Shown here: positions 2,951-44,714 of the stretch, piece by piece
How positions within the stretch are numbered: the stretch's first letter is position 1
Layout of the letters: every line of letters starts with the position of its first letter
NCBI GenBank assembly: GCA_028293325.1
Contig: JAQGPA010000138.1
Span: forward strand, 1-45,379
DNA length: 45,379 nt
Direction of reading: 5' to 3'
From: Pedosphaera sp.
Lineage (GTDB): Bacteria > Verrucomicrobiota > Verrucomicrobiia > Limisphaerales > Pedosphaeraceae
Translations under genes and position numbers: made by a program
The notes under the pieces: generated by a model
What the model was told of the DNA's origin: nothing
The model's input: only the letters and a program-made list of their open reading frames with translations
The model's database searches: none

Positions 2951-3042
2951 GGGTGAGGTGCCACAACAAAATTCTCCCCCCGTCCGCTTCCCCCCATTCC
3001 AATCCCCCTTGAGCTTTTCCCCCGACACGCTATTTTCACCCC

Positions 3043-15937: not shown

Positions 15938-17299
15938 ATGATGCAATCTTCTGCCGATAAAGTCTGGACTGCAGCGCAACAACAATTGCGCTCCATGTTG
16001 AGTCCGGACACTTTCAATCTCTGGTTCGCCCCGCTGCGCGCACAGACCCTGGATGCCGAATGCATCACCCTCGAGGTCGCCAATGATTTCTGCGAGGTCT
16101 GGCTTAAGGACAACTACATGGGCCTGCTGCAGGACGTGTTGTCGCGTTCTTCCGGCCAACCGATGCATGTTAAATTCAAAGTCGTGCCGGGTGGCGCTGT
16201 TGTCACCGCGCCCATCACGCACGCCAGCCACGCCAAAGCCAAGCCCGCGGAAACCGCCACCGAGCGCACCTCCGCTGAACTCGCGTTCAATCCCAAAAAC
16301 ACTTTCGACAGCTTCGTCGTTGGCAATAACAATAATTTCGCCCATGCCGCCGCCATGGCGGTCGCCCAGGCGCCCGGCAAATCCTACAATCCGCTGTTTC
16401 TTTATGGCGGTGTCGGTCTTGGCAAAACTCACTTGCTCCACGCCATCGGCCAGCATGTCGTCAGCCAAAGAAAAGGCGCGCGCGTTTCCTACGTCTCCTC
16501 GGAAAAATTTACCAACGAGTACATCGACGGCATCCAGAACAACCAACTCGCCCGTTTCCGGAAGAAATATCGCCAGACCGAAGTCTTGTTGATCGATGAC
16601 ATCCAATTCCTGGCCGGCAAGGAACGCATCCAGGAGGAATTTTTCCATACCTTCAACGCCCTGCACGAATCGCATAAACAAATCGTCCTCACGTGCGACC
16701 GTCCCGCCAGTGAAATCCAAAACCTCGAGCAACGCCTCGTCTCCCGTTTCGAATGGGGTTTGGTCACGGATTTGCAGCCGCCCGATATCGAGACTCGCCT
16801 GGCCATCCTGCGGAAAAAAGCCAAGTCTCTCGGCGTGGAACTGCCCGAGGAGATTATTAATTTCCTGGCGCATCGCATTCGCGCCAACATCCGCCGCCTG
16901 GAAGGCGCCTTGATCCGCGTCGCTTCCTACGCCTCGCTGACCGGCAAGAAATTGAGCATTGAAGTCGTGGAAGGCTTGTTGCGCGAAGTGCTGCACGAAG
17001 AAGGCCGCTTTTCCATCAACATTGAAGTCATCCAAAAGCGCGTGGCCGAGCATTATGATATTCGCCTGGCCGACATGACCAGCAAGCGCCGTCCGGAAAA
17101 TATCGCCTTTCCCCGTCAGGTGGCCATGTTCCTCTCCCGCCAAATGACGGAAAGCTCCCTCAACACCATCGGTGAAGCCTTTGGCGGACGCGATCACGGC
17201 ACTGTCCTCCACGCCTGCCGGCTCGTCAAAGACCGCATGGAAGTGGACGCCAATGTCCGCCAGGTGGTGCAATATCTGGAAAAGCAGTTGCTCCGTTGA
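15938..17299 (+). CDS. dnaA: chromosomal replication initiator protein DnaA
   Basis: N-terminal DnaA domain I (VWTAAQQQLRSMLSPDTFNLWFAPL). AAA+ Walker A GGVGLGKTHLL and Walker B LLIDDIQF. C-terminal DNA-binding domain IV (VAMFLSRQMTESSLNTIGEAFGGRDHGTVLHA). The start is placed at the ATG ATG pair; the ORF track begins at an upstream GTG. Confidence 0.95.
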   Translation: MMQSSADKVWTAAQQQLRSMLSPDTFNLWFAPLRAQTLDAECITLEVANDFCEVWLKDNYMGLLQDVLSRSSGQPMHVKFKVVPGGAVVTAPITHASHAKAKPAETATERTSAELAFNPKNTFDSFVVGNNNNFAHAAAMAVAQAPGKSYNPLFLYGGVGLGKTHLLHAIGQHVVSQRKGARVSYVSSEKFTNEYIDGIQNNQLARFRKKYRQTEVLLIDDIQFLAGKERIQEEFFHTFNALHESHKQIVLTCDRPASEIQNLEQRLVSRFEWGLVTDLQPPDIETRLAILRKKAKSLGVELPEEIINFLAHRIRANIRRLEGALIRVASYASLTGKKLSIEVVEGLLREVLHEEGRFSINIEVIQKRVAEHYDIRLADMTSKRRPENIAFPRQVAMFLSRQMTESSLNTIGEAFGGRDHGTVLHACRLVKDRMEVDANVRQVVQYLEKQLLR

Positions 17300-25490: not shown

Positions 25491-26537
25491 TCATCCAAGT
25501 CTTTGGCGCAGCATTTCTGCAACACGAATAAAGGCCTGACCGGGAGGCTTTTCCGGTGCAGAAACCACCACCGGCACCCCTTCATCGCCCCCAATTCGAA
25601 TCTCTGTAAATATTGGAATCTCACCTAGAAAAGTCGTCTTTTGGCGCTCTGCTTCCTGCCGTCCGCCCCCATGTCCAAAAATCTCCACTCTATCGCCGTT
25701 GGGTGCAGTGAAATAGCTCATGTTCTCAATGATCCCCAGTATCGGCACATTGACCTTCTCGAACATGGCAATCCCCTTGCGCACCACTCCCAGCGACGCC
25801 TCCTGCGGCGTGGTCACAATCACGCCGCCATCCAACGGGACGGTCTGGCACAGGGAGAGTTGCGCGTCCCCGGTTCCCGGCGGCAGGTCCACGAACAAAT
25901 AATCCAATTCACCCCAGGCCACAGCAGTCACGAATTGTTGAATGGTCTTCATGATCATCGGCCCGCGCCAGATGACCGGACTGTCGCCCTCAATCAAAAA
26001 ACCCATGCTCATGAGTTTCACCCCATGGCTGACCGGCGGCACCATCATGGTTTCGTCTTCGGTGACGGTCGGTTTTTTCTGCGTCCCCATCATCAGCGGA
26101 ATGCTCGGCCCGTAAATATCGCAATCCAACAAACCCACTCGCAACCCAAGATGTTGCAACGCGCAGGCGAGATTGACCGAGGTGGTTGATTTGCCCACGC
26201 CACCCTTCCCGCTCGCCACGGCCACGATGCGCTGGATGCCTGGCACCTTGTTCTGATTCTGCCATGGACTCTGCGCCGACGCCGCTTGCGGCCCCGTTGG
26301 CGCCTTGACCTCGACATGCACCAGGTTGACACCCGGTAACGCTTTCAACGCCCGTTCGCTCTCAGTTTTGATTTGTTGCGCCACCTCCGGCGTGCCGGAC
26401 GTCAATTGCAGCGAGACACTGACCGCCCCGTCCTTGGCGTTGATCTGTTTCACCAGCCCAAAGGAGACGATATCGCGGCTGTAACCGGGATATTTCACGC
26501 TGCTGAGCGCACTTTTAATTTGTTCTTCGGTAATCAT
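25491..26537 (-). CDS. apbC: Mrp/NBP35-family iron-sulfur cluster carrier ATPase (ApbC)
   Basis: N-terminal DUF59-like domain, P-loop AVASGKGGVGKST, and the CxxC Fe-S ligand motif region. 348 aa. Confidence 0.9.
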   Translation of the reverse strand: MITEEQIKSALSSVKYPGYSRDIVSFGLVKQINAKDGAVSVSLQLTSGTPEVAQQIKTESERALKALPGVNLVHVEVKAPTGPQAASAQSPWQNQNKVPGIQRIVAVASGKGGVGKSTTSVNLACALQHLGLRVGLLDCDIYGPSIPLMMGTQKKPTVTEDETMMVPPVSHGVKLMSMGFLIEGDSPVIWRGPMIMKTIQQFVTAVAWGELDYLFVDLPPGTGDAQLSLCQTVPLDGGVIVTTPQEASLGVVRKGIAMFEKVNVPILGIIENMSYFTAPNGDRVEIFGHGGGRQEAERQKTTFLGEIPIFTEIRIGGDEGVPVVVSAPEKPPGQAFIRVAEMLRQRLG

Positions 26538-26611: not shown

Positions 26612-27853
26612 TCAATGGACAGATTTGGTTGCGCCGGCCGCCTCTTCCCTGGGTTGGAGCACCGAATCGATGGTCCCGTGCTGAAATTCATCCCACAACG
26701 GCGACAACCCGCGCAGCTTCTTCACCACCTTCTCAAAAGTCTCCGCCACGTATTCCATTTCCTCACTGGTATTCTCCTTACCGAGCGATATCACAAGGTT
26801 CCCCTGTGCCAACGCATGGTCAAGCCCGGTGGCCTCCAGCACATGCGAGACCTTCAACGCCTTGCTGATGCAACTGGGCCCGCTTGCCGCCGCAATGCCT
26901 TGCATATCCAGCAACAACAACATCCCCTCGCCCTCCACAAACTCCACGCTCACATTCAGATTTGTGCTGATGCGCTGCGGCCCAGGCTCCGGCCCGTTCA
27001 GTTTGATGTAAGGAATGCGCGCCTTAAGACTCTCCCACAACTTGCGCTGCAAGTTTGCGGTATGGGCAATCCGGCGCGGCATCTCGCGCAAAGCAATCTC
27101 CGCCGCCACGCCCGCACCCACAATGGCCGGCACGTTCTCCGTCCCCGCACGTCGACCTTCTTCCTGGCTCCCGCCCTGCTGAATCCCATTCAACCGCGCC
27201 CGCCGATTGCGGTACAAAACTCCCACGCCTTTCGGCCCGTAAAAACGATGCGGAGAAAGTGAGAGCAACCCCGCGCCCATCGCCTGCACATCCACCGGCA
27301 ACCAACCGCCGCTCGCCACCGCATCCACAAAAAACGGAATCCCCCGTTCCCCAGCCAGCGCGCCAATCTCACGAATTGGCTCAATGGTCCCTAACTCATG
27401 GTTCACGTGATGCACACAAACCAAAATGGTCTGCTCCGTCAGCGCGGCCCGCACCTGTTCCGGATCCACGAACCCGGCCGCGTCCACCTTGATCTTCGTG
27501 CAGGTGAACCCCTGCTTTTCCAGAAATTCAATGGAGTTGAGCACCGACAAATGCTCCGTGGCGCTCACCACGATATGATTCCCCTTGCGCTGCCGCGCGT
27601 ACGCCGTTCCTTTTACCGCCAGATTGGCCGATTCCGTCGCGCCGGATGTAAAGATGATGTCTTCGGGCGATTCCGCATTAATGAGCGCCGCGATTTGCGA
27701 TCGCGCCTTGCCCAACGCATCACGCGCTCGTAAGCCGTGGCGATGCAGCGACGCCGGCGCGCCAAAATGCTCCGTGAAGTACGGCGTCATCGCTTCCAGC
27801 ACGGCCGGTAAAACCGGTGTGGTGGTTTGGTGGTCTAAAAATACGTGGCGCAT
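26612..27853 (-). CDS. cysteine desulfurase (class V aminotransferase, IscS/NifS family)
   Basis: PLP-lysine region (SLSPHRFYGPKGVG), the GTENV motif and an active-site Cys loop (SGPSCIS). 413 aa. TGA stop. Confidence 0.85.
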   Translation of the reverse strand: MRHVFLDHQTTTPVLPAVLEAMTPYFTEHFGAPASLHRHGLRARDALGKARSQIAALINAESPEDIIFTSGATESANLAVKGTAYARQRKGNHIVVSATEHLSVLNSIEFLEKQGFTCTKIKVDAAGFVDPEQVRAALTEQTILVCVHHVNHELGTIEPIREIGALAGERGIPFFVDAVASGGWLPVDVQAMGAGLLSLSPHRFYGPKGVGVLYRNRRARLNGIQQGGSQEEGRRAGTENVPAIVGAGVAAEIALREMPRRIAHTANLQRKLWESLKARIPYIKLNGPEPGPQRISTNLNVSVEFVEGEGMLLLLDMQGIAAASGPSCISKALKVSHVLEATGLDHALAQGNLVISLGKENTSEEMEYVAETFEKVVKKLRGLSPLWDEFQHGTIDSVLQPREEAAGATKSVH

Positions 27854-32096: not shown

Positions 32097-32609
32097 ATGC
32101 CGGCATTCATCGAACTTGAGCAGCTTTACGATGACCATGCCCCGGCATTGTTCGCCTTCCTGCTCAACTTCACCCGCAACGAAGCGGATACCCGCGATGT
32201 CCTCCAGGAACTCTTCATCAAGCTGGCCCGCAAGCCCGATTCCCTCGCCAATATCCGCGACCCGCGCGCCTTTCTGCTCCATCTCGCCCATAATCTGGCC
32301 ATCGACCTCATGCGCCGGCGCGGGACGCGCGAGAAGCATTACGAGCAACTGGCCGCGGAAAGCGAAAATCTCTTTGCCGCTTCAGCCAACCCGGATCAAC
32401 AGGAATTCCGCTCGGCGCTAACCCGGGCATTGGGTGAATTGCCCGCCGACCAGCGCGCGGTGGTTCACTTGAAACTTTGGGAAGGCCTGACCTTTGAACA
32501 AATTGCTACCGCGCTGGATCTCTCCGCCAACACCGCTGCCAGCCGCTATCGCTACGGCCTAGACAAATTGCGCGAGCGCCTGCGTCCACTCTATGAAGAA
32601 ATCAAATGA
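32097..32609 (+). CDS. ECF-type RNA polymerase sigma factor (sigma-70 regions 2 and 4)
   Basis: Region 2 (DTRDVLQELFIKL) and a region 4 helix-turn-helix (LTFEQIATALDLSANTAASRYRYG). 170 aa. Confidence 0.85.
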   Translation: MPAFIELEQLYDDHAPALFAFLLNFTRNEADTRDVLQELFIKLARKPDSLANIRDPRAFLLHLAHNLAIDLMRRRGTREKHYEQLAAESENLFAASANPDQQEFRSALTRALGELPADQRAVVHLKLWEGLTFEQIATALDLSANTAASRYRYGLDKLRERLRPLYEEIK

Positions 32610-33042
32610 TTTGAAGCCGATGAACCCGGACGATTTCGAACAACAACTCCAGCGCCAACCGCTGCGCCCACTTCCCGCCGATTGGCGCGCCGACATCTTG
32701 CAGACGGCCCGGGCCGCCGCTTCGCAAACCTCAACTTCGAATCCGCAACCCGTTCGCCAATCCTTTCTCGCCACTCTCCTCTGGCCCTGCCCCCAAGCCT
32801 GGGCCGGACTTGCCGCCGTCTGGCTGGCGCTCCTGGCCCTGAATTTTACAACGACCGACCAGCCGGCGACCGCCGCCGAAACCAAAACCCAGCGCTCGCC
32901 GCAACTGCTCGCGGCCTTGCGAGAACAGGAACGCATGTTAGCGGAACTCCTCCAACCGTGGGAACCGCAGGCGGCTGAACCGCCGAAACCCGCAAACCAT
33001 CAGCCCCGGAGCGAACGACAGAGAACGACCGCTTTCGCCTGA
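32593..33042 (+). CDS. putative anti-sigma factor (single-pass membrane protein) overlapping the ECF sigma gene by 17 nt
   Basis: 149 aa. Cytoplasmic N-terminus, one hydrophobic helix (LAAVWLALLALNF), Pro/Gln-rich C-terminus. The position and overlap are typical of ECF anti-sigma partners. Confidence 0.45.
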   Translation: MKKSNDLKPMNPDDFEQQLQRQPLRPLPADWRADILQTARAAASQTSTSNPQPVRQSFLATLLWPCPQAWAGLAAVWLALLALNFTTTDQPATAAETKTQRSPQLLAALREQERMLAELLQPWEPQAAEPPKPANHQPRSERQRTTAFA

Positions 33043-33064
33043 AACATCCCGCACTTCATTTTTT

Positions 33065-34732
33065 ATGAACGAACCCAGCACCAGCATTTGGAAACGACAG
33101 ATTATTCCTGAATTGGGCGTATTCAGGTTCTTTCGCTGGCTTTTCAGTTGGCGGATGATTCGCCGCTATCTGTTCTGCCTCGCCTGCCTGGTCACGTTGC
33201 TTGCGCTGTTCTACGCCGAGGAAAACTGGCGCGGCAGGCATGCTTGGGAAAAATATAAGCGCGAAGCCATCGCGCGCGGTGAGCAGTTCAATGTCTCCGC
33301 CTTCATTCCGCCAACGGTCCCGGACGACCAAAACTTTGCCGCCACCCCCTTCTTCGCATCGCTCTTTGATTTCAAGCCTGGCACCCAGGAGGCCCGCGAC
33401 ACCAATGCAACCCGTCGCTTTGCGGAATTTCAGTCACACCATTACCCATCCCCAGCCGCCGCTGAATCAAAGGCTCCCAAGGCAACCCCGGTCAATAGCT
33501 GGGTCCGCCATCAACCAAATCTGCCGTTCTGGTATTCGGAATTTGTCCAATCCACCAACAAGGTTTCTCACTCCGCCTCTGACCTTGCGTTGACCAATGC
33601 CAGTCCTCAAGAAGCGGCACGTGACATCATGACCGCGCTGGCTTTTGCCAATCCGGTGCTGGACGAAATACGAACCACCAGCCAGCGGCCGGCTTCACGT
33701 TTCAATATCCGCTACGAGAACGATGATCCGGCGGCAATCCTGCTGCCGCATCTCGCCGGGTTGAAGGAAATCACAGTAATTCTGCAAACCCGCGCCTTCG
33801 CGGAGTTGACCCTCGGCCAGACGAACGAAGCCTTTGATGACTTGATCCTGTCACTCCGCATGACCGATGCGCTCAAGGATGAGCCCATTATCATTTCGCA
33901 ACTGGTTCGCTCTGCCCAATTGAATATTGCCATTTTGCCAATCTATCAGGGACTCGTGGATCACCAATGGACGGAACCGCAATTGCGGGCGTTGCAGGAA
34001 AAACTGGAGCATTTTGATTTTTGCAACGACGGCCAGCGCGCGCTCCAGTCGGAACGTGTTTTTTTTGGTGGCGGGATATTCGAATTCCTTCGGCACGCAC
34101 CCAGCAATTACAAGTTGCTTTTCTTCGTAAGTGGCGCACCAGATGACCAGCTAGGCGGTAATAGCATTTCGGGACAGGCCATCGGCTTTGGCATGGCCAT
34201 CGCTCCAAAGGGTTGGTCGTATTTTGAACAACTCAACTACACTCGCACCTACGGCGACTTGCTGCTGCCGATTATCGATTCCGAGAACCGCCGCATCAAC
34301 CCCGCTCTTTGCGCCAAGGCCGACCAGCAGCTCGGCGGCGAATTGAAACGCAGTCCTCGCAAGTTGTTCTTTCATCACCAGGTCTTTTCCGCCTTGTTGC
34401 TTCCCGCCCTGGCCAACATTGTTCAAAAAACGGCACGCACCCAGACCGCCGCAGATGAGACAGTGCTGGCGTGCGCGCTGGAGCGTTATCGCCTGGCACA
34501 TGGACAATTTCCCGAAACGCTCGACGCCCTCATGCCGCAGTTCATCAGCCAACTCCCGCACGACGTCATCAATGGCCAATCGTATCACTACCGGCTCACG
34601 TCCGACGGCCAATTCGTCCTCTATTCCGTCGGCTGGAATGAAACCGACGACGGCGGCACAGTTGCCACAACCACGACTGGCTCCACTGATTTCAAAAACG
34701 GCGACTGGGTCTGGCAATATCCCACCCGCTAA
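33065..34732 (+). CDS. hypothetical membrane-anchored protein (555 aa), probably exported; co-oriented with the sigma/anti-sigma pair
   Basis: N-terminal TM helix (YLFCLACLVTLLALFYA). No recognised catalytic motif. Confidence 0.5.
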   Translation: MNEPSTSIWKRQIIPELGVFRFFRWLFSWRMIRRYLFCLACLVTLLALFYAEENWRGRHAWEKYKREAIARGEQFNVSAFIPPTVPDDQNFAATPFFASLFDFKPGTQEARDTNATRRFAEFQSHHYPSPAAAESKAPKATPVNSWVRHQPNLPFWYSEFVQSTNKVSHSASDLALTNASPQEAARDIMTALAFANPVLDEIRTTSQRPASRFNIRYENDDPAAILLPHLAGLKEITVILQTRAFAELTLGQTNEAFDDLILSLRMTDALKDEPIIISQLVRSAQLNIAILPIYQGLVDHQWTEPQLRALQEKLEHFDFCNDGQRALQSERVFFGGGIFEFLRHAPSNYKLLFFVSGAPDDQLGGNSISGQAIGFGMAIAPKGWSYFEQLNYTRTYGDLLLPIIDSENRRINPALCAKADQQLGGELKRSPRKLFFHHQVFSALLLPALANIVQKTARTQTAADETVLACALERYRLAHGQFPETLDALMPQFISQLPHDVINGQSYHYRLTSDGQFVLYSVGWNETDDGGTVATTTTGSTDFKNGDWVWQYPTR

Positions 34733-34742: not shown

Positions 34743-36440
34743 CTAATCCTTCGCGCTCAGCGAACCAATCACCCCACCCGGCGCGTGATAACTGTGGCAG
34801 GTCGCACAACCACTCGCCACCCCGCCCTTGGGACTGTGACATTCCACACAACTTGATTTGCTCGGCAGCAGCACATCCGCCGTCTCACGACTCCGCTCTA
34901 CGTCATGGCATTTGGCGCAAGCCATATTGATATGCTTTGCGTGATTGAATTGGCCGCGAATCAACCACCGCGTCATTTGAACCGGCGGCACAATGTCCGG
35001 CGCGGCGTCCGCGCCGGTCGCTTTAACCTCATGGCAATACGCACATCCGGGGTATCGCGCACGGGCGGGTTGCTCTCCGTCGCCGGTTTTCTCCATCGGG
35101 CCGTTGTGGGCATCGCTGAAGAAAACCTGCTGTTCCAAATTCTCACCCGCCAGGGCTTGCTTCCGCAGTCCCGCCATTTGCAGTTTCACAAATGCGTCCA
35201 ATTCAACCTGCGTCGTCAGGCCCTTCTTGTTGCGCCCATATTCCGCGTATTGCGCGGGCAGGCTGCGCAGAAAAGCGCGCGCAAACTCCGCGTTCCCGTG
35301 CGGAATCGACAACTCCGGATTCTTCTCGTCGAATTGCAGCGAGTGGCAAACCTTGCAATTCTGCTCGTAGGAAACCGGCTGATAATACAAACCCGTCGCG
35401 TCCGGTTTATGACAGGTGGCGCAATCCAGTTTTTTGCCGTTCACGGATGGAATGTTCGGCGAGCCCAGATGCAGTTGATGATTAAATTTGAGCGTGTCGG
35501 GATCGCGCAGCTTTTCAGCCAGCACTTGAAATTCCGGATGATCGGTCGCAAAGGTGTGGATCACCTTCGTGTAACCCTGCTCCGGTCGCGGCGCCTTGAA
35601 CATCGTCCACCCAAGGTCGGGCCGATAATCAAATGCCGCCGCCGGAAGCTCCTTGCCTCTCTGGAACGAGGCTTGCATGACCTGCCCATCTGCATGACAC
35701 GAGGCGCAATTCGCATCTTCCGGCCGCTGCATCACCATTCCTTGATGTTCCCGATGGCACGCGGAGCAGGAATGGTCGCGCACCACGTTCGGTTCATGAA
35801 AATTGTGACGTTGATGACAAGTCTGGCAGGACGCGTCAATCGCCGTCAACCCCGTGTTCGTCGTGGCCAGCAGCTTGTGAAACTCCAGCAATGCCGGATC
35901 CGCTCCCGCCGCGGAACCCAGCCAGCGGGCCGGTCCCGCGCCGGCCGCGCCGTGACACGCCGCGCAATCCTGCCCGTTGCCGCCCGCGCCCCGATGCATC
36001 CGCGCGAATGCCTCCGTGGAATGTTGCGCGGACAGCCTTCCGGGATTGATGAATTGCGAACGAAAGGGTCCGCTCAACGATACCAGCAACACCGCCACCG
36101 TGAGCATCACCACCACCCGAGTGAACACCTTCCGTTTTGCGCGCAAGCTGCGGACTGGCTGGCATTTGGTAATGGCCCGGCAGCAGGTGCCGTCGGGCAA
36201 CGGCCCGGTTTCGCACGCCCCGCCAAACTCCGCCGTGCGCGTGCAACGATAGCGCCCCTTCGTTTCTCCCTCCTTGAGTTCAAGCACCGGCCGGCATTCA
36301 AACGTCGCGCGGCACCGGCCGCTGGGATCGGGCCCGATGCGACAACATTGCCCCTTCGCCGCCTTGCCGCAAATCCAATCCTGGTTGGGCCGCGCATACT
36401 GGCTGGCGTCAAATTGAGGCGCGGGCAATTGCTCTTTCAC
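34743..36440 (-). CDS. decaheme c-type cytochrome with N-terminal Cys-rich (cytoplasmic?) domain and one TM helix
   Basis: Ten CxxCH motifs (CAACHG, CQTCHQ, CSACHR, CASCHA, CATCHK, CKVCHS, CAYCHE, CAKCHD, CVECHS, CATCHS). N-terminal ~95 aa hold 10 Cys in two tandem C...CC...C...C-(R/Q)P units before the TM VVVMLTVAVLLVSL. The start overlaps the upstream gene's stop (ATGA). Confidence 0.85.
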   Translation of the reverse strand: MKEQLPAPQFDASQYARPNQDWICGKAAKGQCCRIGPDPSGRCRATFECRPVLELKEGETKGRYRCTRTAEFGGACETGPLPDGTCCRAITKCQPVRSLRAKRKVFTRVVVMLTVAVLLVSLSGPFRSQFINPGRLSAQHSTEAFARMHRGAGGNGQDCAACHGAAGAGPARWLGSAAGADPALLEFHKLLATTNTGLTAIDASCQTCHQRHNFHEPNVVRDHSCSACHREHQGMVMQRPEDANCASCHADGQVMQASFQRGKELPAAAFDYRPDLGWTMFKAPRPEQGYTKVIHTFATDHPEFQVLAEKLRDPDTLKFNHQLHLGSPNIPSVNGKKLDCATCHKPDATGLYYQPVSYEQNCKVCHSLQFDEKNPELSIPHGNAEFARAFLRSLPAQYAEYGRNKKGLTTQVELDAFVKLQMAGLRKQALAGENLEQQVFFSDAHNGPMEKTGDGEQPARARYPGCAYCHEVKATGADAAPDIVPPVQMTRWLIRGQFNHAKHINMACAKCHDVERSRETADVLLPSKSSCVECHSPKGGVASGCATCHSYHAPGGVIGSLSAKD

Positions 36441-37273
36441 CGCGCGCCCCCCGAGAAGGCGTAAACCAAAATGATGTGAACGATGGAAAAGATGAGCAGG
36501 CTGTAGGTCAGCGGAATATGCACGAACAACCAGCCGCGCAACGAGAGTTGCAGCGCATGATGATAATCCAATCCATCCTTCTGCCGCACCAGTTCGGCGA
36601 TTTTCTCCAATGTCTCCCGCTCCTTCGCGTCTGAATAACGGTTCAGGTCGCTAATCTTGTTGAGCAGCAGGTTCAACGGCCGGCGCACTTCCAAAAAGTG
36701 CAGCGAAAGATTCTGCGGCCTCTCAAAAAAGTCCTTCAACTGGGTGATGTAAAAATTTGCAATCGTAGGCGAGCGCGCCTCGCTCACCGATTGTAACGCC
36801 AACGCCTCCGCCTGTTGCTGAAAGCCGCGGCGAATCGCCGGAATCCGCTCATACAATATTTCACCGCCGCGTGTCGTCAGCCGCTTCGGAATCGACCGCG
36901 AGACGAATAATCCCCACACCCCGCTCAACGTCACCAGCACATACAGCCATGCGAGTGTCCCCTGAAACCAGCCGGTCGGCATTTTATAACTGATATGAAT
37001 CGCAAACAAAATCACCGTCAGCAACCCGGCATAAATATGAAATTGCAGCCAGCTTTCCGACGAGCCGAGCGGCAGGAACGGCAATTTCTTGCGCCCGTTA
37101 TACGCGGTCAACACCAGCATTACCGCGAACAGCACCCAGCCGGAAACATAACTTAGGCGCGGCATCACTCCGGCATACTTCGCATGCTCGGCCATCGCCC
37201 ACGCACCGAATGCCACCAGCATCCCCAGCCCCATCCAGCGTTGTCGGGTGAAGGAGGTCATCGCTTCAGCCAC
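36437..37273 (-). CDS. ferric-reductase-like (FRD/MsrQ-like) di-heme-b transmembrane protein
   Basis: 6 predicted TM helices. Two H-x13-H pairs in TM helices: HIYAGLLTVILFAIH and HIPLTYSLLIFSIVH, the spacing diagnostic of bis-heme ferric reductase domains. Confidence 0.6.
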   Translation of the reverse strand: MAEAMTSFTRQRWMGLGMLVAFGAWAMAEHAKYAGVMPRLSYVSGWVLFAVMLVLTAYNGRKKLPFLPLGSSESWLQFHIYAGLLTVILFAIHISYKMPTGWFQGTLAWLYVLVTLSGVWGLFVSRSIPKRLTTRGGEILYERIPAIRRGFQQQAEALALQSVSEARSPTIANFYITQLKDFFERPQNLSLHFLEVRRPLNLLLNKISDLNRYSDAKERETLEKIAELVRQKDGLDYHHALQLSLRGWLFVHIPLTYSLLIFSIVHIILVYAFSGGAR

Positions 37274-38997
37274 TTTGCGAACGTGTCCAGATCATTTAGA
37301 TTCATCCGTTTCAACGCGCCGTGCGGACACGCCCGCTCGCACGATGGCCCGCCAATTTGCTCCACGCACAAATCGCACTTCGTGGCCTTGATGATCGGTT
37401 TCATTTCCTTGTCCACCATCAACTCCCCTTCGCCATCACGAATTTCCACCATGCGAATCGCATCGTAAGGACAATTGTTGAAACACGCCTTGCAGCCAAT
37501 GCACGTGGTCGGATTAATGACCACCTCGCCGCCAAACGCATCGCGGTGAATTGCCCCGGTCGGGCAGCCAATCATGCAAACCGGATCCACGCAATGCATG
37601 CACGCGTTGGCCACCATGATCTTGCCGTTGGTCAAACCGTGGCGCAAAAAGCGCGGGTTGTTATCATGTGACGCCGCGCAGGCCCGCACGCAATCATCGC
37701 ACCGCGTGCAGCGATCCAAATCAATCAACATCGACGCCGTGCCGTTAAAGAAACGGTTCTCCGTCAAAAACTCCAGCGTGTCCGCCCCGATCTTGGCGGC
37801 GGCATCCGTTTGGTTTTCGATTTCGTTCAGGACAAAGGCGTCATCCTCCACCTGCACCGGCGGTGGCAGTTTGGCCTTCGGCACCGTGGGCAGCACGATG
37901 GTTTCCATGATCGCCGTCGGAATCACCAGCACATGCGTGTAGCCGATGGACCGCAGGGTGTGTTGCAGCGGGACGGGGTTGCCGGGATTGCGCCAGTTGT
38001 GCACGATTTCCGCCAGCCCGTAATCGCGCCCCGCGCCGAGATAATTCAACGTCCGGTGTCCATGCCCAAACTTCTGGCTCAACCGCGCAAAGCCCGCGCG
38101 AATCAGCACCACCCCGTTGGGATAATCCCCTTCCTGGGCCACGACCGGTTCCTTTTCCGCCTGGCCCGCGTGCCCCGCCTGCGCGAGCCGTTTGTAATCA
38201 CCCGACCAATCATAGTCGCCGTACGTGCCGAATTCCGTGCGCGCCATCACCTTCTGCAAATCGGCGTCGGACAGATGCTGAAAGATCGGGATTTCGCGCA
38301 AGTGCGCCGCCAAAGCCCGCTCACGATAAATCTTATCAATGTGCGCCCGCAATTTGTCGTCGTAACGCATCAGGTCGCGCAGCCCCTGCCAGCGAATCTC
38401 CAACAGTTCGGTGTTGTCATCCTGGGCAAACACCGTGGCCGTGCGCGGCATGCGGCTCAACGCGGCAATCTCGCCAAAGAAATCACCCGGGTTGAGCACC
38501 GCCGTGCGATGCGCATCCAGGATGCGCGGCACATCCTGCAAAAAGATTTTGACCTGGTCGCCTTCATCCTTGCGCGCGCCAACGCGGGCATCCTGTTTCA
38601 ATTGGGAAGGCTTGAATCTTTCCGGTTCACGCGAATTGGACCAGAGCTGCGCCAGCACGCGCAGCAATCCTTTCCGCACCGGTTCGCGCCGGCCCAGGAC
38701 GGATGCGGGCAATTCGGGATTGAGCACCACACGCACACCGCCGGACACGACCATGAATGCGGAAGTGCCGTGATCGCCCGCGCGCACCACGATTTCACCC
38801 TGGCGATAACGCCGCAGGCGGGTGTCGTGTTGCAGAATGTCGCGCAGAGCCAGTCGCTTTGGAAAACCCTCGGGGTTCATCTCGTTGAACGGCGCGAGTC
38901 CCTGGATAAGCTCTGCCAACGCCGCCGGCATGTCGGGATCAAACGATGCGTCCCAGCGTTGCGGTCGTTCCAAAATAAGTGGTAAGGCGGCAGGCAT
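37258..38997 (-). CDS. cyclic-nucleotide-binding domain protein fused to a poly-4Fe-4S ferredoxin domain
   Basis: cNMP-binding motif GDFFGEIAALSRMPRTATVFA plus a second degenerate cNMP-like domain. C-terminal CTRCDDCVRAC, CMHCVDPVCMIGCP, CIGCKACFNNCP, CDLCVEQIGGPSCERACP (four 4Fe-4S cluster motifs). 579 aa. Confidence 0.8.
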   Translation of the reverse strand: MPAALPLILERPQRWDASFDPDMPAALAELIQGLAPFNEMNPEGFPKRLALRDILQHDTRLRRYRQGEIVVRAGDHGTSAFMVVSGGVRVVLNPELPASVLGRREPVRKGLLRVLAQLWSNSREPERFKPSQLKQDARVGARKDEGDQVKIFLQDVPRILDAHRTAVLNPGDFFGEIAALSRMPRTATVFAQDDNTELLEIRWQGLRDLMRYDDKLRAHIDKIYRERALAAHLREIPIFQHLSDADLQKVMARTEFGTYGDYDWSGDYKRLAQAGHAGQAEKEPVVAQEGDYPNGVVLIRAGFARLSQKFGHGHRTLNYLGAGRDYGLAEIVHNWRNPGNPVPLQHTLRSIGYTHVLVIPTAIMETIVLPTVPKAKLPPPVQVEDDAFVLNEIENQTDAAAKIGADTLEFLTENRFFNGTASMLIDLDRCTRCDDCVRACAASHDNNPRFLRHGLTNGKIMVANACMHCVDPVCMIGCPTGAIHRDAFGGEVVINPTTCIGCKACFNNCPYDAIRMVEIRDGEGELMVDKEMKPIIKATKCDLCVEQIGGPSCERACPHGALKRMNLNDLDTFAKWLKR

Positions 38998-39004
38998 GCG
39001 GATA

Positions 39005-40309
39005 TCAGGCGTCGAGAACGATACTACCGCGGGGTTTGCAAATGCACGTCAGGCACGAACCGCTTTCCGGCTTCTCGCCCGGTTCGCTCACATAGTCCAC
39101 GTCCCCGGATTTGATGGCGACCAGGCAACTTCCGCAACTCCCCGCCCGGCAGCCGGAATCAATCCGCACTCCGTTTTCCAATGCAAAATCGAGCAGCGAC
39201 CCCGTGCCGGGCTGCCATTGGCATTTCTTGCCCGACCGGCTGAACATGACTTCGATGGCCGCCACGCCCGCCTCGGCGGCTGGCGCCACTGGCGCGGCCT
39301 TCTTCTTCACTGTCGCCGGTCCAAATGCTTCGAAAAAGACACTCTTCTCCGGCACGCCCCATGCCTCGAGGCCGTCCGAAATGCTTTTCATAAACGCGCC
39401 ATTGCCACAGAGAAAATAATCGTAATTGTTGGACGGCAGCAGTTCCTTGAACAATTCCACGCACACCCGCCCTTCATGATGGTAATCAGTCCCTTTGCAG
39501 TCCTCCGCGTCCGGCCGGCTGTAACAGACATGCAAATGAATATTCTCATTTGCCGCCGCCAACCGTGCCATTTCCTCCTTGTGAATATGCTCCTTACGAT
39601 TCCGCGCGCCGAAGAAAAACCAGACCTCCCGCTTCGACCCGATCGCCGCAATCGCGTTGGCCATGCTCAACATCGGCGTCACTCCCACGCCGCCGGACAC
39701 CAGCACCACCGGCGCTTCCTTGGCCATATCCAGGAAGAAGTTCCCGCCCGGCGCTTTCACATCCAGTATGTCGCCTTCCTTCACGCGATCGTAGAAATAA
39801 CTCGAAGCCACGCCGGACGGCAGTTCGGGACGATTCGGCGGCGGCGGCTCTTTCTTGATCGTCACGCGATAATAATCGGTGCGATGCGGACTGTCCGAAA
39901 GCGAGTAACAACGCACCACCGGCTTGCCAATGCCCGGAATATTCAATTGAAATGTGATGTATTGCCCCGGTTTGTAAGGCGGCAGCGGCTTGCCATCGTG
40001 CGGCGCCAGATAAAAAGCGCAGACGCCATCGCATTCCTTGACCTTTTTGGCGACCTGAAATTTCCGATACCCATTCCACACCAACCGGGCCTGCTCGACC
40101 TCGCGACACTGCATTGCCGCGGCCTTGACGAGCAATTGCAGCCGTTCCCGGCTGTGTTTCTGATGCTCGCGCTCGAAATAAACCCGCCGGATGGTGATGT
40201 AGAGCAGCAGCAATCCTTGCAGCAAAAGAATTCCCAGCAGCGCGTAACCGAACGCCAGCCCAACACTCCCGCCCAGCGCCCGATGCAAGCTGTCGATAAT
40301 TGATTGCAT
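39005..40309 (-). CDS. membrane-anchored FAD/NAD(P)H oxidoreductase (ferredoxin-NADP-reductase-like) with C-terminal 2Fe-2S ferredoxin domain
   Basis: N-terminal TM (LAFGYALLGILLLQGLLLLYI). FAD-binding R-x-Y-S (VRCYSLS). NAD-binding GGVGVTPMLSM. C-terminal plant-type ferredoxin Cys cluster CRAGSCGSC...C. 434 aa. Confidence 0.8.
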   Translation of the reverse strand: MQSIIDSLHRALGGSVGLAFGYALLGILLLQGLLLLYITIRRVYFEREHQKHSRERLQLLVKAAAMQCREVEQARLVWNGYRKFQVAKKVKECDGVCAFYLAPHDGKPLPPYKPGQYITFQLNIPGIGKPVVRCYSLSDSPHRTDYYRVTIKKEPPPPNRPELPSGVASSYFYDRVKEGDILDVKAPGGNFFLDMAKEAPVVLVSGGVGVTPMLSMANAIAAIGSKREVWFFFGARNRKEHIHKEEMARLAAANENIHLHVCYSRPDAEDCKGTDYHHEGRVCVELFKELLPSNNYDYFLCGNGAFMKSISDGLEAWGVPEKSVFFEAFGPATVKKKAAPVAPAAEAGVAAIEVMFSRSGKKCQWQPGTGSLLDFALENGVRIDSGCRAGSCGSCLVAIKSGDVDYVSEPGEKPESGSCLTCICKPRGSIVLDA

Positions 40310-41557
40310 TGTCTCACTGATTTGTCTAACAAATCGATTGTGCTGAGTAAACTTCTAAGTGACCCCCGTCCGCGGCACGCTGCTTTTTTTTCGCAACCAC
40401 TCAAATCGCTTCCCGAATTCCGGCCTCCGTTTGGGGCGACACTGCTCCTGGGCGCGGCTCTTTTTGTCCTCGCCAGCCCGGTCAAAGCGGAGGGACCCGC
40501 CCTCACGCCGCCTAAGTTTCTTGGCGAGCTCAGTTGCAGTTCCTCCAGTTGCCACGGCGGGGCAGGTGAGAAGCGAAGCCAGTTTATCACCTGGTCCCGG
40601 CGCGATTTCCATACCCGCTCCTACGCCACGCTGACCACCGCCCGTTCTGCCCGCATCGCGGAATCACTTAAAATCAGCGCCCCCACGCAAAGCGCCCGTT
40701 GCACGGTCTGCCACGCTCCCTTTCAAACCGCCCTTCCCGCGCAATTGGCTGCAGACGTCGATTTCACCAAAGGCGTCTCATGCGAAACCTGCCATGGCCC
40801 GGCCGAAAACTGGTTGCGTTCGCATACCCGCCCCGATTGGACCCATCAGGATCGCGTCCACGCCGGCATGCGTGACTTGCAGGACTTGTATGTGCGCGCC
40901 AACAATTGTGTCGCCTGCCACCAAAACGTCGAGGCCGACCTCCTGCGCGCGGGCCATCCCGAACTCATCTTTGAACTCGACGGCCAATCAGTGACCGAAC
41001 CAAAACATTGGCACGAACTGGCTGGCTGGTCGGGCGCGCAAACCTGGCTCGTCGGCCAGGCCGCCGCCTTGCGCGAAATGAGCTGGCAGTTAACCCGCGA
41101 AAAATCCCCCACCGAAAGCATGACCCAACGCTGGGCCGCGTTGCTTTGGCTGCTCCAACAAACAGCATCATCCCCCGCCGCTCCCATTGATCCAACTCCC
41201 GATAACTTGTCGTTCACCCAAAAATGGGCCGACCAACTCGCGCGCGAAACCGCCGCAACCCCGTGGACGCCCGAATCCACCCGCAAATATCTGACCACCC
41301 TCGCCGGCACCGCCGAATCCTTCCGCGCAAAATCTTCCTCGCAACCCATTCAAGCCCGCCGCGCCGAAAGATTAGCCCTCGCGCTGGACCGCTTGGTCAC
41401 AAGTTTGAACGACAAGCAAACTGCCAATCGCCTCGACCCATTCTTGAACAAGTTATTCAAAGACGCCCAATCCCTGCCCGACTTCAACCCCAACCAATTT
41501 GCCGCCCATTTGGAAGAGTTCGCGAAATGCCTTCCCGTCTCCCTTGCTGTTAAATAG
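40304..41557 (+). CDS. tetraheme c-type cytochrome (exported)
   Basis: CSSSSCHG (CxxxxCH), CTVCHA, CETCHG, CVACHQ, and a signal-peptide-like LLLGAALFVLASPVKA. The ORF-track ATG at 40304 overlaps the divergent gene's start, so the true start is probably a downstream non-ATG codon before the signal peptide. Confidence 0.65.
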   Translation: MHCLTDLSNKSIVLSKLLSDPRPRHAAFFSQPLKSLPEFRPPFGATLLLGAALFVLASPVKAEGPALTPPKFLGELSCSSSSCHGGAGEKRSQFITWSRRDFHTRSYATLTTARSARIAESLKISAPTQSARCTVCHAPFQTALPAQLAADVDFTKGVSCETCHGPAENWLRSHTRPDWTHQDRVHAGMRDLQDLYVRANNCVACHQNVEADLLRAGHPELIFELDGQSVTEPKHWHELAGWSGAQTWLVGQAAALREMSWQLTREKSPTESMTQRWAALLWLLQQTASSPAAPIDPTPDNLSFTQKWADQLARETAATPWTPESTRKYLTTLAGTAESFRAKSSSQPIQARRAERLALALDRLVTSLNDKQTANRLDPFLNKLFKDAQSLPDFNPNQFAAHLEEFAKCLPVSLAVK

Positions 41558-41813: not shown

Positions 41814-44714
41814 ATGAAGCGCCATTTTCATTTTATAACCATCCTGGCTGTCCTTGCCGCCGTTTATTTTCTGGCCGGCAAATTTGGACTATCACTTGCT
41901 TTCATCAATGCCAGCGCCACTGCGGTGTGGCCGCCCACCGGCATCGCCCTCGTCGCCGTGCTGTTTTGGGGATACCGGGTATGGCCTGCCATATTTTTAG
42001 CCGCTTTCCTGGTGAACTTTACCACCGCCGGTTCTTTTGCGACTTCGCTGGGCATCGCCGCCGGCAACACGCTCGAAGCCCTGCTCGGCGGATGGTTGGT
42101 CAACCGCTATGCCCAGGGCACGGACGCACTCAATCAGCCCAAAACCGTTTTTAAGTTCGTCCTTCTGGCCGGCATGCTCAGCACCATGGTGAGCGCCACC
42201 TTGGGACTCGCCTCCCTTTCGCTGGGCGGATTCAGTCCTTGGGCAAACTTCGGCTCAATTTGGTTGACCTGGTGGATTGGAAATCTGGTCAGCAATATTG
42301 TGGTGGCGCCGCTGTTGTTGGTTTGGAGGGTCAGACCCTATCCGCGTTTGAAACCGTCGCAGGCTTTCGAAGCCGTACTGCTGTTCGCAAGCGTCATATT
42401 GTTTGGTCAAACCGTTTTTGGTGGCTGGCTTATTCCCAGGGGCAGCGGTTACACTCTTGAATACCTCGTGATTCCGCCACTTTTGTGGGCGGCTTGGCGC
42501 TTCGGCTTGCGCGGGGCCTCGGTGGTGATCGTCACCCTATCCTTAATCGCCATCGGGGGCACCCTTCGGGGCTCCGGCCCGTTTGCCCGGCAAGACCACA
42601 ATACCGGTCTGCTGCTGTTGCAAATTTTCATGGCGGCCATCGCGCTCACCGCGCTCGTGCTGGCCGCGGTGATTCGGGAGCGAAATCAAAACCTCAGCCG
42701 GCTCACCATGCAGTATGCTGTGGGGCGCGCCCTGGCCGAGTCCGCGACGCCGGCCGAGGCGAGCAGGAGAATCCTGCCGCTGGTCTGCTCCGCGTTGGAA
42801 TGGGAACTGGGCGCGACTTGGATGGTGGACGAGCACGCCCGGGTCTTGCGGCCCGTGGATTTCTGGCATTCGCCTTCGGTAATCGTGGCGGAATTTGAGG
42901 CGCTCACCCGCAGCACCACCTTTCCACCAGGCGTGGGGCTGCCCGGAGAAATCTGGGCCCGGGGCGAGTCTCACTGGATTTCAGATGTAACCCTGAGCAA
43001 TAATTTCCCCCGCATCCCCATGGCCTTGCGCAACGGCCTGCATGCGGGCTTTGGCTTTCCCATCTCGGCCGGCAACAAAATTCTGGGCGTGATGGAATTT
43101 TTCAGCCGCAATGTCCGTCCGCCGGACCAGGATCTGTTGGATACCTACACCGCCATTGGCCGGCAAATCGGCCAGTTCATTGAACGCAAACAGGCGGAAG
43201 TGGCATTGTCGGAAAGCAACGCACTCAAAACCGGAATCCTGCGGTCCGCCTTGGATTGCATCATCACCATGGACCAGGCCGGGAGGATCGTTGAGTTTAA
43301 TCCCGCTGCCGAAATGACTTTTGGCTATCGCCGGGACGAAGTCATCGGTCGTCTCATGGCCGAAGTCATCATTCCGCCCCACTTGCGGGAGGCGCACACC
43401 CGCGGCCTGGCCCGCTACCTAACCACAGGCGAAGGACCGGTCTTGGGCAAACGGATTGAAATGACGGGCATGCGCTCGGATTCCACCCTGTTTGCCCTGG
43501 AATTGACGATCACGCGGATTGAGCTGGAGGGGCCGCCCCTGTTTGCCGGGTTTATGCGGGACATTACCACCGTGAAGCAGGCCGAGGCCGCTCTGCGCCA
43601 ATCGGCAGAGCGGCTCCGGTTTATGGCGGAATCCATGCCGCAAAAAATCTTCACGGCCAAACCGGATGGCACTGTCGATTATTTCAACCAGCAATGGACG
43701 GCGTTCACTGGCCTCCCCTTTGAACAGATTCGCGGCTGGGGTTGGACACAATTTATTCATCCCGATGAGGTGGCGGAAAATGTGCGCCGCTGGCGCCACT
43801 CGCTCGAAACCGGCGATCCTTTTCAAATGGAGCACCGGTTCCGCCGTGCCGATGGCCTCTACCGCTGGCACCTGAGCCGCGCCCACGCGCTGCGCGACGA
43901 CACCGGCCAGGTGCTCATGTGGATTGGCTCGGACACCGACATCGAAGATCAAAAGCGCGCGGAACAGAACCTGGAGCGGGTCGTGGCTGAGCGCACCGCT
44001 AAACTGCAGGAAACGATTGGCGACCTGGAAGCGTTCTCCTATAGCATCTCGCACGACCTGCGCGCCCCCTTGCGGTCCATGACGGGATACATCCGGATCA
44101 TCCAGGAAGATTTTAGCGACAAAGTTGGGCCGACGGTCAATGGCTACCTCACGCGCATCTCCACCGCCGCCGCGCGCATGGACAAACTCATTCAGGACGT
44201 GCTCACCTTGAGCCGCATGGCTCGCATTAATTTGCAACTGCAACCGGTGGACATGGAGAAACTTTTCCGCGGTGTGTTGGATGTGTACCCCAATCTGCAA
44301 CCCCCGCACGCCGAGATTCGAATTGAAAGCCCGCTGCCACCAGTCCTGGGCAACGAGGCGGCCTTGACCCAATCCATTTCCAATCTTCTGGGTAACGCGG
44401 TCAAGTTTGTCGCGCCGGGCGTGCTCCCCCAAGTGCGGGTTTGGGCGCAGGAAAAAGGCGACTGCATCCGCTTTTATTTCCAGGACAACGGCATTGGCAT
44501 CGCCCCCGATCATCAAGAGCGCATTTTCAACATGTTTGAGCGACTCCATTCCACCACCGACTATCCGGGCACCGGCATTGGCCTGGCCATCGTCCGCAAG
44601 TCAGTCGAACTCATGGGCGGCAAAGCCGGCGTCGAATCAGAGCCGGGCAAAGGCAGCACATTCTGGTTGGAATTAAATCGCGCAACACCGCTGGAAACAC
44701 CCGGGTCCGGTTAG
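41814..44714 (+). CDS. multi-domain sensor histidine kinase (MASE1-like membrane domain, GAF, two or three PAS, HisKA, HATPase_c)
   Basis: N-terminal polytopic membrane region; GAF-like (LGATWMVDEHARVLRPVDFW); PAS (ILRSALDCIITMDQAGRIVEFNPAAE..., PQKIFTAKPDGTVDYFNQQW); H-box SHDLRAPL; G-boxes GTGIGLAIV. 966 aa, TAG stop. No response regulator gene is adjacent. Confidence 0.9.
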   Translation: MKRHFHFITILAVLAAVYFLAGKFGLSLAFINASATAVWPPTGIALVAVLFWGYRVWPAIFLAAFLVNFTTAGSFATSLGIAAGNTLEALLGGWLVNRYAQGTDALNQPKTVFKFVLLAGMLSTMVSATLGLASLSLGGFSPWANFGSIWLTWWIGNLVSNIVVAPLLLVWRVRPYPRLKPSQAFEAVLLFASVILFGQTVFGGWLIPRGSGYTLEYLVIPPLLWAAWRFGLRGASVVIVTLSLIAIGGTLRGSGPFARQDHNTGLLLLQIFMAAIALTALVLAAVIRERNQNLSRLTMQYAVGRALAESATPAEASRRILPLVCSALEWELGATWMVDEHARVLRPVDFWHSPSVIVAEFEALTRSTTFPPGVGLPGEIWARGESHWISDVTLSNNFPRIPMALRNGLHAGFGFPISAGNKILGVMEFFSRNVRPPDQDLLDTYTAIGRQIGQFIERKQAEVALSESNALKTGILRSALDCIITMDQAGRIVEFNPAAEMTFGYRRDEVIGRLMAEVIIPPHLREAHTRGLARYLTTGEGPVLGKRIEMTGMRSDSTLFALELTITRIELEGPPLFAGFMRDITTVKQAEAALRQSAERLRFMAESMPQKIFTAKPDGTVDYFNQQWTAFTGLPFEQIRGWGWTQFIHPDEVAENVRRWRHSLETGDPFQMEHRFRRADGLYRWHLSRAHALRDDTGQVLMWIGSDTDIEDQKRAEQNLERVVAERTAKLQETIGDLEAFSYSISHDLRAPLRSMTGYIRIIQEDFSDKVGPTVNGYLTRISTAAARMDKLIQDVLTLSRMARINLQLQPVDMEKLFRGVLDVYPNLQPPHAEIRIESPLPPVLGNEAALTQSISNLLGNAVKFVAPGVLPQVRVWAQEKGDCIRFYFQDNGIGIAPDHQERIFNMFERLHSTTDYPGTGIGLAIVRKSVELMGGKAGVESEPGKGSTFWLELNRATPLETPGSG

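Follow-up and report, generated by a model that had tools for sequence, protein, structure and literature searches.

The operon ptdABCDEFG was named in a preprint for its penta-, tetra- and decaheme cytochromes (bioRxiv 10.1101/2023.11.21.568154). Its products are described there as a beta-sandwich-bearing pentaheme protein (PtdA), a porin (PtdB), an FAD/NAD(P) oxidoreductase (PtdC), a periplasmic tetraheme cytochrome (PtdD), a protein with cyclic nucleotide-binding and 4Fe-4S modules (PtdE), a ferric reductase-like protein that spans the membrane (PtdF) and a decaheme cytochrome (PtdG). Table S7 of the same preprint gives 20 organisms, all marine or saline, among them one marine Verrucomicrobiales metagenome-assembled genome and several cultured carriers, for example Roseibium aggregatum and Sulfidibacter corallicola; ptd genes also occur in nitrite oxidisers (bioRxiv 10.1101/2023.11.21.568154). 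Our literature search did not meet the name ptd outside that preprint. Here we describe a cluster of five redox genes, g1 to g5, in a contig of 45,379 nucleotides from Pedosphaera sp. (Verrucomicrobiota; JAQGPA010000138.1), which we call the window. The cluster is of the ptd type but has no outer-membrane half, a form common in apparently non-saline Verrucomicrobiota, and is a candidate for an electron wire across the inner membrane.

Two other groups of systems invite comparison. The Tmc and Hmc complexes of sulfate reducers, like Ptd, join periplasmic multiheme c cytochromes to a membrane b cytochrome and a cytoplasmic Fe-S subunit; their b cytochromes are of the NarI type, their Fe-S proteins are HdrD-like CCG proteins, and electrons move inward. 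CbcL, ImcH and CymA of metal reducers also resemble Ptd, in that a periplasmic multiheme c cytochrome is coupled to a membrane b cytochrome; these draw their electrons from quinol. Both groups provide the entry, at the inner membrane, to a periplasmic or extracellular electron path. To our knowledge, neither an FNR module nor cyclic nucleotide (cNMP)-binding domains are found in Tmc/Hmc, CbcL, ImcH or CymA, and those routes that have been characterised, whether to extracellular or to periplasmic acceptors, start at the quinone pool.

Within the host phylum, cultured Limisphaera respire ferric citrate and ferrihydrite and have multiheme cytochromes whose assignment is only loose (PMC13608581); the gene cluster treated here is not described in that paper. 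Freshwater and bog Verrucomicrobia have a porin-multiheme cluster, which leaves the inner-membrane step open (PMC5615132). We considered this cluster as a possible match and rejected it: it consists of an 8-heme cytochrome and a porin, without the genes of the present cluster.

Gene layout and correspondence to ptdCDEFG

The cluster consists of four co-directional genes on the minus strand (g1 to g4) and a fifth, g5, divergent from g1. This arrangement, first proposed in an earlier note made from the letters of the window, was recovered from the open reading frame (ORF) list and by re-translation. So were the overlaps of 16 nt between g2 and g3 and of 4 nt between g3 and g4 (GTGA); the gap between g1 and g2, given in the note as 8 nt, measured 7 nt (38998-39004). 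The note's module assignments also held. We found a membrane anchor followed by FNR-type and 2Fe-2S domains in g1, a cNMP-binding region with four 4Fe-4S motifs in g2, ten CXXCH motifs in g4 and, in g5, three CXXCH motifs with one CX4CH in a Cytochrome_C554 match. Scans for promoters and terminators gave site counts not above those of shuffled controls.

The note had supposed that this combination of genes was undescribed, a supposition that fell with the preprint, since the cluster corresponds to the ptdCDEFG part of ptdABCDEFG (bioRxiv 10.1101/2023.11.21.568154). On sequence grounds we assign g1 to ptdC, g5 to ptdD, g2 to ptdE, g3 to ptdF and g4 to ptdG, because the architecture is the same and because the window proteins are homologous to those of loci with identical architecture. 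One such locus lies on a contig labelled Halobacteriovoraceae, which has the exact published A-B-C-D-E-F-G order and carries at position F a relative of g3 (P0226; E 8e-50, 35% identity, full length). Below we use the Ptd names for the window proteins in the sense of this assignment.

The window cluster and the published operon share five protein types and the E-F-G order, but they differ in several respects. In the published operon ptdD stands between ptdC and ptdE, whereas in the window it is divergent. The published operon has ptdA and ptdB, and the Verrucomicrobiota version lacks them at the locus: the PtdA-like and PtdB-like proteins encoded by two distant relatives (L088 and L089, below), used as tblastn queries, gave no match in the window or in 81 Verrucomicrobiota loci (within 8 kb). 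The ptdAB genes may lie elsewhere in those genomes. The published hosts are marine or saline, whereas the Verrucomicrobiota carriers found here look like inhabitants of soil, peat, groundwater and lakes. Differences at the level of the proteins are taken up with the proteins themselves.

Conservation, distribution and variant clusters

We followed the cluster through the family of its membrane protein, g3. This family gave 1539 matches in a database clustered at 90%, the nearest of them labelled Pedosphaera or Verrucomicrobiae, and 1727 clusters at 50% identity. A genome scan with a 16-sequence g3 alignment as query, in which each species was represented by a single genome, detected relatives in 504 species-level genomes, and the best 80 of these 504 were used for synteny. 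Nearly all of the 80 were labelled Verrucomicrobiota (Limisphaerales or Pedosphaera-like). The titles of their records suggest soil, peat, bog, groundwater and lake as habitats of the Verrucomicrobiota carriers.

Gene order was mapped with tblastn, using the five window proteins. The order g5 (divergent)-g1-g2-g3-g4 was kept in essentially all of about 80 species-level Verrucomicrobiota loci wherever the flank sufficed. Adjacency of g5 to g1 was seen in 58 of 81 loci, most of the others being cut by contig ends. The genes that flank the cluster in the window, encoding a 555-amino-acid protein and a MASE1 kinase, were not common to the relatives' loci. All-against-all clustering of flank ORFs yielded no sixth gene universally linked to the cluster; it returned only antisense shadow ORFs besides one recurrent neighbor. 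This neighbor encodes an HbpS-like (heme-degrading/GlcG-like) protein of 535 amino acids, convergent downstream of the decaheme gene in 31 Verrucomicrobiota loci (for example L036, 10476-12080, minus strand); it is not in the window.

The gene set also recurs outside Verrucomicrobiota, across phyla, at 34-36% g3 identity, and there the composition varies. In L083 the g1 homolog (1444-3189) has an N-terminal FHA (phosphothreonine-binding) domain and two hydrophobic segments and is followed by g2, g3 and g4; this would point to a wire of the same kind under another regulatory input. In L084 the c554, g2, g3 and g4 genes all run in one direction. L082 encodes a natural PtdE-PtdF fusion of 843 amino acids (P0238, 8001-10532), followed only by a multiheme cytochrome; neither FNR nor c554 genes were found within 8 kb of the fusion gene. 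By this fusion the Fe-S chain is set directly against the b-type membrane protein on its cytoplasmic face.

Three further loci, L087, L088 and L089, have F genes that belong to the g3 family. They also encode a 5-heme protein of about 600 amino acids and a porin-like protein of about 470 amino acids, which has a signal peptide, ends in Phe and has no Pfam match. L089 (4981-12692) comprises the pentaheme, the porin-like protein, a transmembrane-anchored 2Fe-2S ferredoxin of 156 amino acids, c554, a PtdF-like protein and a decaheme; the ferredoxin is 46% identical to the C-terminus of g1, and the FNR and cNMP/Fe-S modules are absent. What all these variants keep as a core is the b-type membrane protein together with the decaheme cytochrome (F and G, usually with E).

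The five genes form a conserved unit, as borne out by the gene-neighbourhood check that the earlier note had proposed. Chance juxtaposition of unrelated redox genes, for which we see next to no probability, is excluded by the order kept in about 80 species, unlike that of the flanks, by recurrence across phyla, by the overlapping coding regions and by the gene fusion.

The putative di-heme b membrane protein

PtdF (g3) is the element on which a membrane crossing would depend. It carries two H-x13-H motifs, as the earlier note had stated. Down to 31% identity, all of 141 g3 relatives keep H79, H93 and H266, and 90% or more of them keep H252; across the 25 most distant relatives all four are invariant. 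G45, G118, G121 and W248 are also invariant in the 141. The AlphaFold2 model is all helical and of very high confidence (mean predicted local distance difference test [pLDDT] 95.5, predicted template modelling score [pTM] 0.88), with helices at residues 2-33, 40-63, 72-93 and 102-134, a helical region at 141-212 and a long helix at 216-273.

We predict five transmembrane helices, with the N-terminus inside, the C-terminus outside and a cytoplasmic helical insert, about 120 residues long, that separates TM4 from TM5 (TM, transmembrane helix). This topology rests on the AlphaFold2 helices, hydropathy, positive-inside loops and the fusion to a presumably cytoplasmic PtdE-like protein. The six helices of the earlier note are thereby reduced to five. 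Its placement of the four histidines in membrane helices is retained, as they lie on two confidently modelled ones. In the model TM3 and TM5 would be parallel in orientation, with H79 and H252 near the cytoplasm and H93 and H266 near the periplasm.

The note had also likened g3 to NOX and ferric reductases, and membership of that family we could not uphold. The sole Pfam match of g3 was DUF4405 (PF14358), at 22.1 bits, below the cut-off of 26.7; Ferric_reduct (PF01794) gave no match at E<=0.1. Among the 141 relatives, weak Pfam matches were to DUF4405 (49 of 141), Ni_hydr_CYTB (17 of 141) and Ferric_reduct (14 of 141, best 2.6e-4). Profile alignment (hhalign) of the g3 family with E. coli MsrQ was non-significant (E 0.16, probability 0.4%), as was that with E. 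coli YodB; the local MsrQ alignment, itself non-significant, sets W-x-Q-x-H...H on the same g3 histidine pair. Fold searches with g3 (Foldseek/PDB) returned no significant solved structure and no NOX, STEAP or MsrQ. The top heme-protein fold matches, none of them significant, were CybB and a hydrogenase b subunit. Sequence searches of the PDB with g3 and with g4 gave no match.

By sequence, g3 is best described as a putative, divergent and unclassified protein of di-heme-b type, which may work like a ferric-reductase domain and would bind heme b through its two histidine pairs. The comparison with NOX and ferric reductases is instructive on both sides. Shared are an FNR-type flavoprotein and two H-x13-H pairs, one on TM3 and one on TM5, that would stack a pair of b hemes across the membrane. 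Six transmembrane helices are expected there, whereas g3 has five by prediction and a large cytoplasmic insert, with no significant sequence or fold match. In Ptd one 2Fe-2S and four 4Fe-4S clusters would stand between flavin and hemes, and the acceptor, which is O2, an Fe-chelate or MsrP for NOX, Fre and MsrQ, would here be a multiheme cytochrome. Fre with MsrQ is a precedent for a split between an FNR-type reductase and a di-heme membrane protein (PMC5676040). For a DUF4405 protein, heme b binding has been shown and a role as transmembrane electron carrier proposed (PMC11334425). DUF4405, which stands beside PepSY-like and MsrQ-like cytochromes of flavinylation-associated electron transfer in the same study, is the nearest Pfam family of g3 and shares with it four central conserved histidines in a transmembrane bundle. 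The ApbE/flavinylated partner of the DUF4405 systems is not in this locus, where the partners are instead Fe-S proteins and c-type cytochromes.

The cytoplasmic modules

PtdE (g2) matches cNMP_binding (7.1e-24) over three stretches, as well as Fer4 families. Its Fe-S region resembles four-cluster ferredoxins, namely HycB3 (2.1e-17), HydN, NrfC and DmsB. The cysteines fall in the four classical motifs CxxCxxCxxxC, CxxCx4CxxxCP, CxxCxxCxxxCP and CxxCx8CxxxCP, and all 16 are invariant among 72 homologs, distant ones included. Because of this invariance they indicate four predicted 4Fe-4S clusters, whereas the preprint counts two in PtdE. The first cNMP-binding domain has a canonical phosphate-binding cassette, FFGEIAALSRMPRTATV, of the pattern FGE-x-AAL-x-R-x-PR-T-A, in which G171, G175, E176, A179, L180, R182 and R185 are invariant in the 72 homologs. 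By this cassette the domain would count as a cyclic nucleotide-binding domain of the PKA/CAP type, with ligand binding predicted. The second domain is degenerate and lacks the Arg-Thr/Ser-Ala part. As no signal peptide was found in g2, the protein is presumably cytoplasmic.

In PtdC (g1), Pfam matches to FAD_binding_6 (3.8e-08), NAD_binding_1 (7.7e-19) and Fer2 (1.5e-12) follow a transmembrane anchor, which is also present in a g1 homolog labelled Nitrospinota. Residues 60-334 resemble the reductase half of flavohemoglobin (NCBIfam 2.8e-79; PDB 1cqx/3ozu 3.5e-51), and NqrF matches the same residues; the domain search found no globin domain in g1. In 66 homologs the RxYS (RCYS), GxGxxP (GxGxTP) and CG motifs reach a conservation of 95% or more, as do the Fer2 cysteines. 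The domain order, FNR then Fer2, is that of phthalate dioxygenase reductase (2pia). NqrF has, like g1, an N-terminal transmembrane anchor, an FNR module and a plant-type 2Fe-2S domain, but in a different order. From both types Ptd differs in its partner subunits and in an FNR module closest to flavohemoglobin reductase. In the characterised reductases with FNR and Fer2 domains known to us (phthalate dioxygenase reductase, BenC, MMOR and NqrF), electrons pass from NAD(P)H to Fe-S.

The multiheme cytochromes

PtdG (g4) has 10 CXXCH motifs, all kept in 67 homologs, and matches Pfam multiheme families. In front of its single transmembrane helix lies a domain, not mentioned in the earlier note, with eight cysteines (C24, C33, C43, C49, C66, C76, C86 and C93), invariant among 72 homologs and spaced C-x8-C-x9-C-x5-C and C-x9-C-x9-C-x6-C. 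No Pfam family matched this domain. It is conserved across phyla, with the distant loci L084, L087 and L088 retaining it, and is missing from the decaheme of L089, the one locus also without g2. The 8-Cys domain should be cytoplasmic, because the heme domain must be periplasmic; PtdG would then be bitopic and could contact the polyferredoxin PtdE. In the preprint PtdG is periplasmic, whereas that of the window has a membrane anchor.

PtdD (g5) matches Cytochrome_C554 (2.7e-10). Besides its three CXXCH motifs it has the site C78-x4-C83-H84, and all four heme sites are conserved in 49 homologs. A stretch around residues 42-62 resembles a signal peptide, and the true start of the gene is probably the downstream GTG given in Table 1, or close by.

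Several of these features were not found in the preprint and appear to be new: the four predicted PtdE clusters, the conserved cNMP cassette, PtdG's 8-Cys domain, the E-F fusion found in nature, the variant with Fer2 only, and the model of PtdF with five transmembrane helices plus insert and no relatives of solved structure.

Table 1. Genes of the ptd-like cluster and mapped features of their products (positions in the window; aa, amino acids; gene boundaries of g1 to g4 from ORF list and re-translation)
Feature	Residues	Position	Strand	Remark
g1 (PtdC-like)	434 aa	39005-40309	-	
g1 transmembrane anchor	aa 12-45	40175-40276	-	
g1 FAD/NAD module	aa 82-332	39314-40066	-	
g1 Fer2 domain	aa 358-434	39008-39238	-	
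g2 (PtdE-like)	579 aa	37258-38997	-	
g2 phosphate-binding cassette	aa 171-188	38434-38487	-	
g2 Fe-S region	aa 424-575	37273-37728	-	
g3 (PtdF-like)	278 aa	36437-37273	-	
g3 TM3 with H79/H93		36995-37060	-	H-x13-H
g3 helical insert	aa 125-244	36542-36901	-	cytoplasmic by predicted topology
g3 TM5 with H252/H266		36455-36541	-	H-x13-H
g4 (PtdG-like)	565 aa	34743-36440	-	
g4 8-Cys domain	aa 1-100	36141-36440	-	predicted cytoplasmic
g4 transmembrane helix	aa 105-123	36072-36128	-	
g4 periplasmic ten-heme domain	aa 159-549	34794-35966	-	
g5 (PtdD-like)		40304-41557 (ORF)	+	likely start GTG 40340 or nearby; divergent from g1

A proposed electron wire and its alternatives

We read the locus as the inner-membrane half of the Ptd system, a wire from NAD(P)H to multiheme cytochromes that is possibly gated by cNMP, and put the probability of this reading at roughly 55%. 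In this scheme the PtdC-like flavoprotein would oxidise NAD(P)H and pass single electrons via FAD to its 2Fe-2S cluster, from where they would be relayed along the four 4Fe-4S clusters of the PtdE-like protein. The membrane would be crossed via two bis-histidine b hemes of the PtdF-like protein, held by H79 and H252 on the cytoplasmic side and by H93 and H266 on the periplasmic side. The electrons would then enter the membrane-anchored PtdG-like protein with its ten c hemes and, after it, the soluble tetraheme PtdD-like protein. Docking to PtdE may be the role of PtdG's 8-Cys domain and of the helical insert that lies between TM4 and TM5 in PtdF. The final acceptor, not encoded at the locus, might be Fe(III), humic quinones or a periplasmic reductase.

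An inside-negative membrane potential favours outward movement of electrons and opposes inward movement. An outward direction would follow because known reductases of the FNR-Fer2 kind run from NAD(P)H to Fe-S, because potentials fall from NAD(P)H to c hemes, and because of this membrane potential. Such a wire would dissipate both reducing power and membrane potential, which gives a rationale for gates, for which the cNMP cassette of PtdE and the FHA domain of the L083 PtdC are candidates. The cNMP-binding domains of PtdE would thus gate a wire that otherwise short-circuits the membrane. The domain logic of an electron conduit, which the earlier note had put forward, is retained here on the strength of the conserved unit and the PtdE-PtdF fusion; membership of g3 in the ferric-reductase family is dropped.

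Several points weigh against this wire. The preprint states that the function of the operon "remains completely unknown" (bioRxiv 10.1101/2023.11.21.568154). Neither the 45-kb window nor a span of 8 kb in relatives yielded an acceptor or an outer-membrane module. PtdF may have a quinone site. The histidine-histidine geometry of g3 derives from predicted topology, not from measurement on coordinates, and the model of the 8-Cys domain, built from an alignment of 9 homolog fragments, was unusable (pLDDT 36).

Such a possible quinone site belongs to the alternative that we find least implausible, though still rather unlikely: PtdF might be a menaquinol/menaquinone oxidoreductase at a quinone-coupled hub, with PtdC and PtdE acting as an alternative NADH dehydrogenase that feeds NAD(P)H electrons to the quinone pool and PtdG taking electrons from quinol in the manner of CymA, CbcL or ImcH. 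Known inner-membrane entries to extracellular electron transfer are indeed quinol dehydrogenases. The weak Ni_hydr_CYTB matches among the g3 relatives are to a family of quinone-reactive b cytochromes, and CybB and the hydrogenase b subunit headed the heme-protein fold matches; MsrQ, moreover, has lately been reported with a ubiquinone cofactor (PMC12525009). We identified no quinone-site motif in PtdF, however, and the fusion of polyferredoxin to b cytochrome, with a dedicated FNR-Fer2 donor, completes a wire without quinone. The minimal variants, too, keep only E-F plus G. If the flow were instead reversed, as in Tmc/Hmc, electrons from a periplasmic donor would pass through the c cytochromes and b hemes to a cytoplasmic acceptor or NAD(P)+. 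The parallel in architecture, the weak NCBIfam similarities to TmcA and HmcB and the presence of ptd genes in nitrite oxidisers, which need reverse electron flow, all point that way. We nonetheless hold this to be improbable: driving electrons from c hemes to the potential of NAD(P)H against an inside-negative membrane would be strongly unfavourable, the locus contains no energy-coupling subunit, and the hosts are Verrucomicrobiota of heterotrophic type.

About as doubtful as the inward conduit is a role in periplasmic maintenance or sensing, in which small NAD(P)H fluxes would serve repair or detoxification enzymes, as in MsrPQ, or the cNMP/Fe-S protein would report redox state. MsrQ with Fre offers a precedent (PMC5676040). 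The cytoplasmic subunits carry regulatory domains (cNMP-binding in PtdE, FHA in the PtdC of L083), the PtdC module derives from a flavohemoglobin-type reductase, and no outer-membrane partner was found at the Verrucomicrobiota loci. Yet fourteen c hemes would be a large investment for a repair shuttle, full operons elsewhere add a pentaheme and a porin-like protein, which point to the cell surface, and the clustering of flank ORFs revealed no syntenic repair enzyme.

From the preferred wire between NAD(P)H and the multiheme cytochromes, a bolder and distinctly more tentative proposal can be drawn. The wire could be a cNMP-gated, quinone-independent path by which electrons of NAD(P)H leave across the inner membrane, built from an unclassified di-heme-b family with five transmembrane helices and a decaheme cytochrome whose 8-Cys metal domain reaches into the cytoplasm. 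It could be widespread in soil and freshwater Verrucomicrobiota without a dedicated outer-membrane partner, and could be their missing inner-membrane entry for Fe(III) or humic reduction or for fermentative disposal of reductant. If this is true, a wire from NAD(P)H to cytochromes that bypasses quinone and is under second-messenger control would represent a different coupling of metabolism to outside acceptors. An inner-membrane half on its own in apparently non-saline habitats extends the ecological range of ptd genes beyond what has been claimed. The large g3 family is entirely uncharacterised, F and G (usually with E) offer a minimal core for reconstitution, and the cultured carriers of Table S7 make the hypothesis directly testable.

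Other genes in the window

Three ORFs at 32097-34732 (plus strand) converge on the end of g4: a putative ECF-type sigma-like ORF (170 amino acids), an overlapping ORF of 149 amino acids, and the 555-amino-acid protein, which has a weak C-terminal pseudopilin (T2SSG/GspG) match. They are not conserved beside the cluster in relatives. On the other side, g5 is adjoined by a sensor kinase of the architecture MASE1-GAF-PAS-PAS-HisKA-HATPase (41814-44714, plus strand); it is not syntenic with the cluster, with 3 weak matches in 81 loci.

The remainder of the window is ordinary chromosomal DNA near dnaA and dnaE. The dnaE gene (DNA polymerase III alpha) is at 4505-8140 and dnaA at 15899-17299, about 18 kb from the cluster (both plus strand). 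A pair of Fe-S assembly genes encodes an Mrp/NUBPL-like protein (25491-26537) and a cysteine desulfurase-like protein (26612-27853). Glutamine synthetase is spread over two adjacent plus-strand ORFs, of which the first (14095-14814) holds Gln-synt_N and the start of Gln-synt_C and the second (14863-15507) the remainder of Gln-synt_C; a sequencing error could explain the split, as could a frameshift or an in-frame stop. The gene for a 647-amino-acid SPFH/Band-7 protein (10940-12883, minus strand) has directly upstream of it a c-di-AMP riboswitch (12899-13067, minus strand; Rfam RF00379, 61.8 bits, E 4.8e-12).

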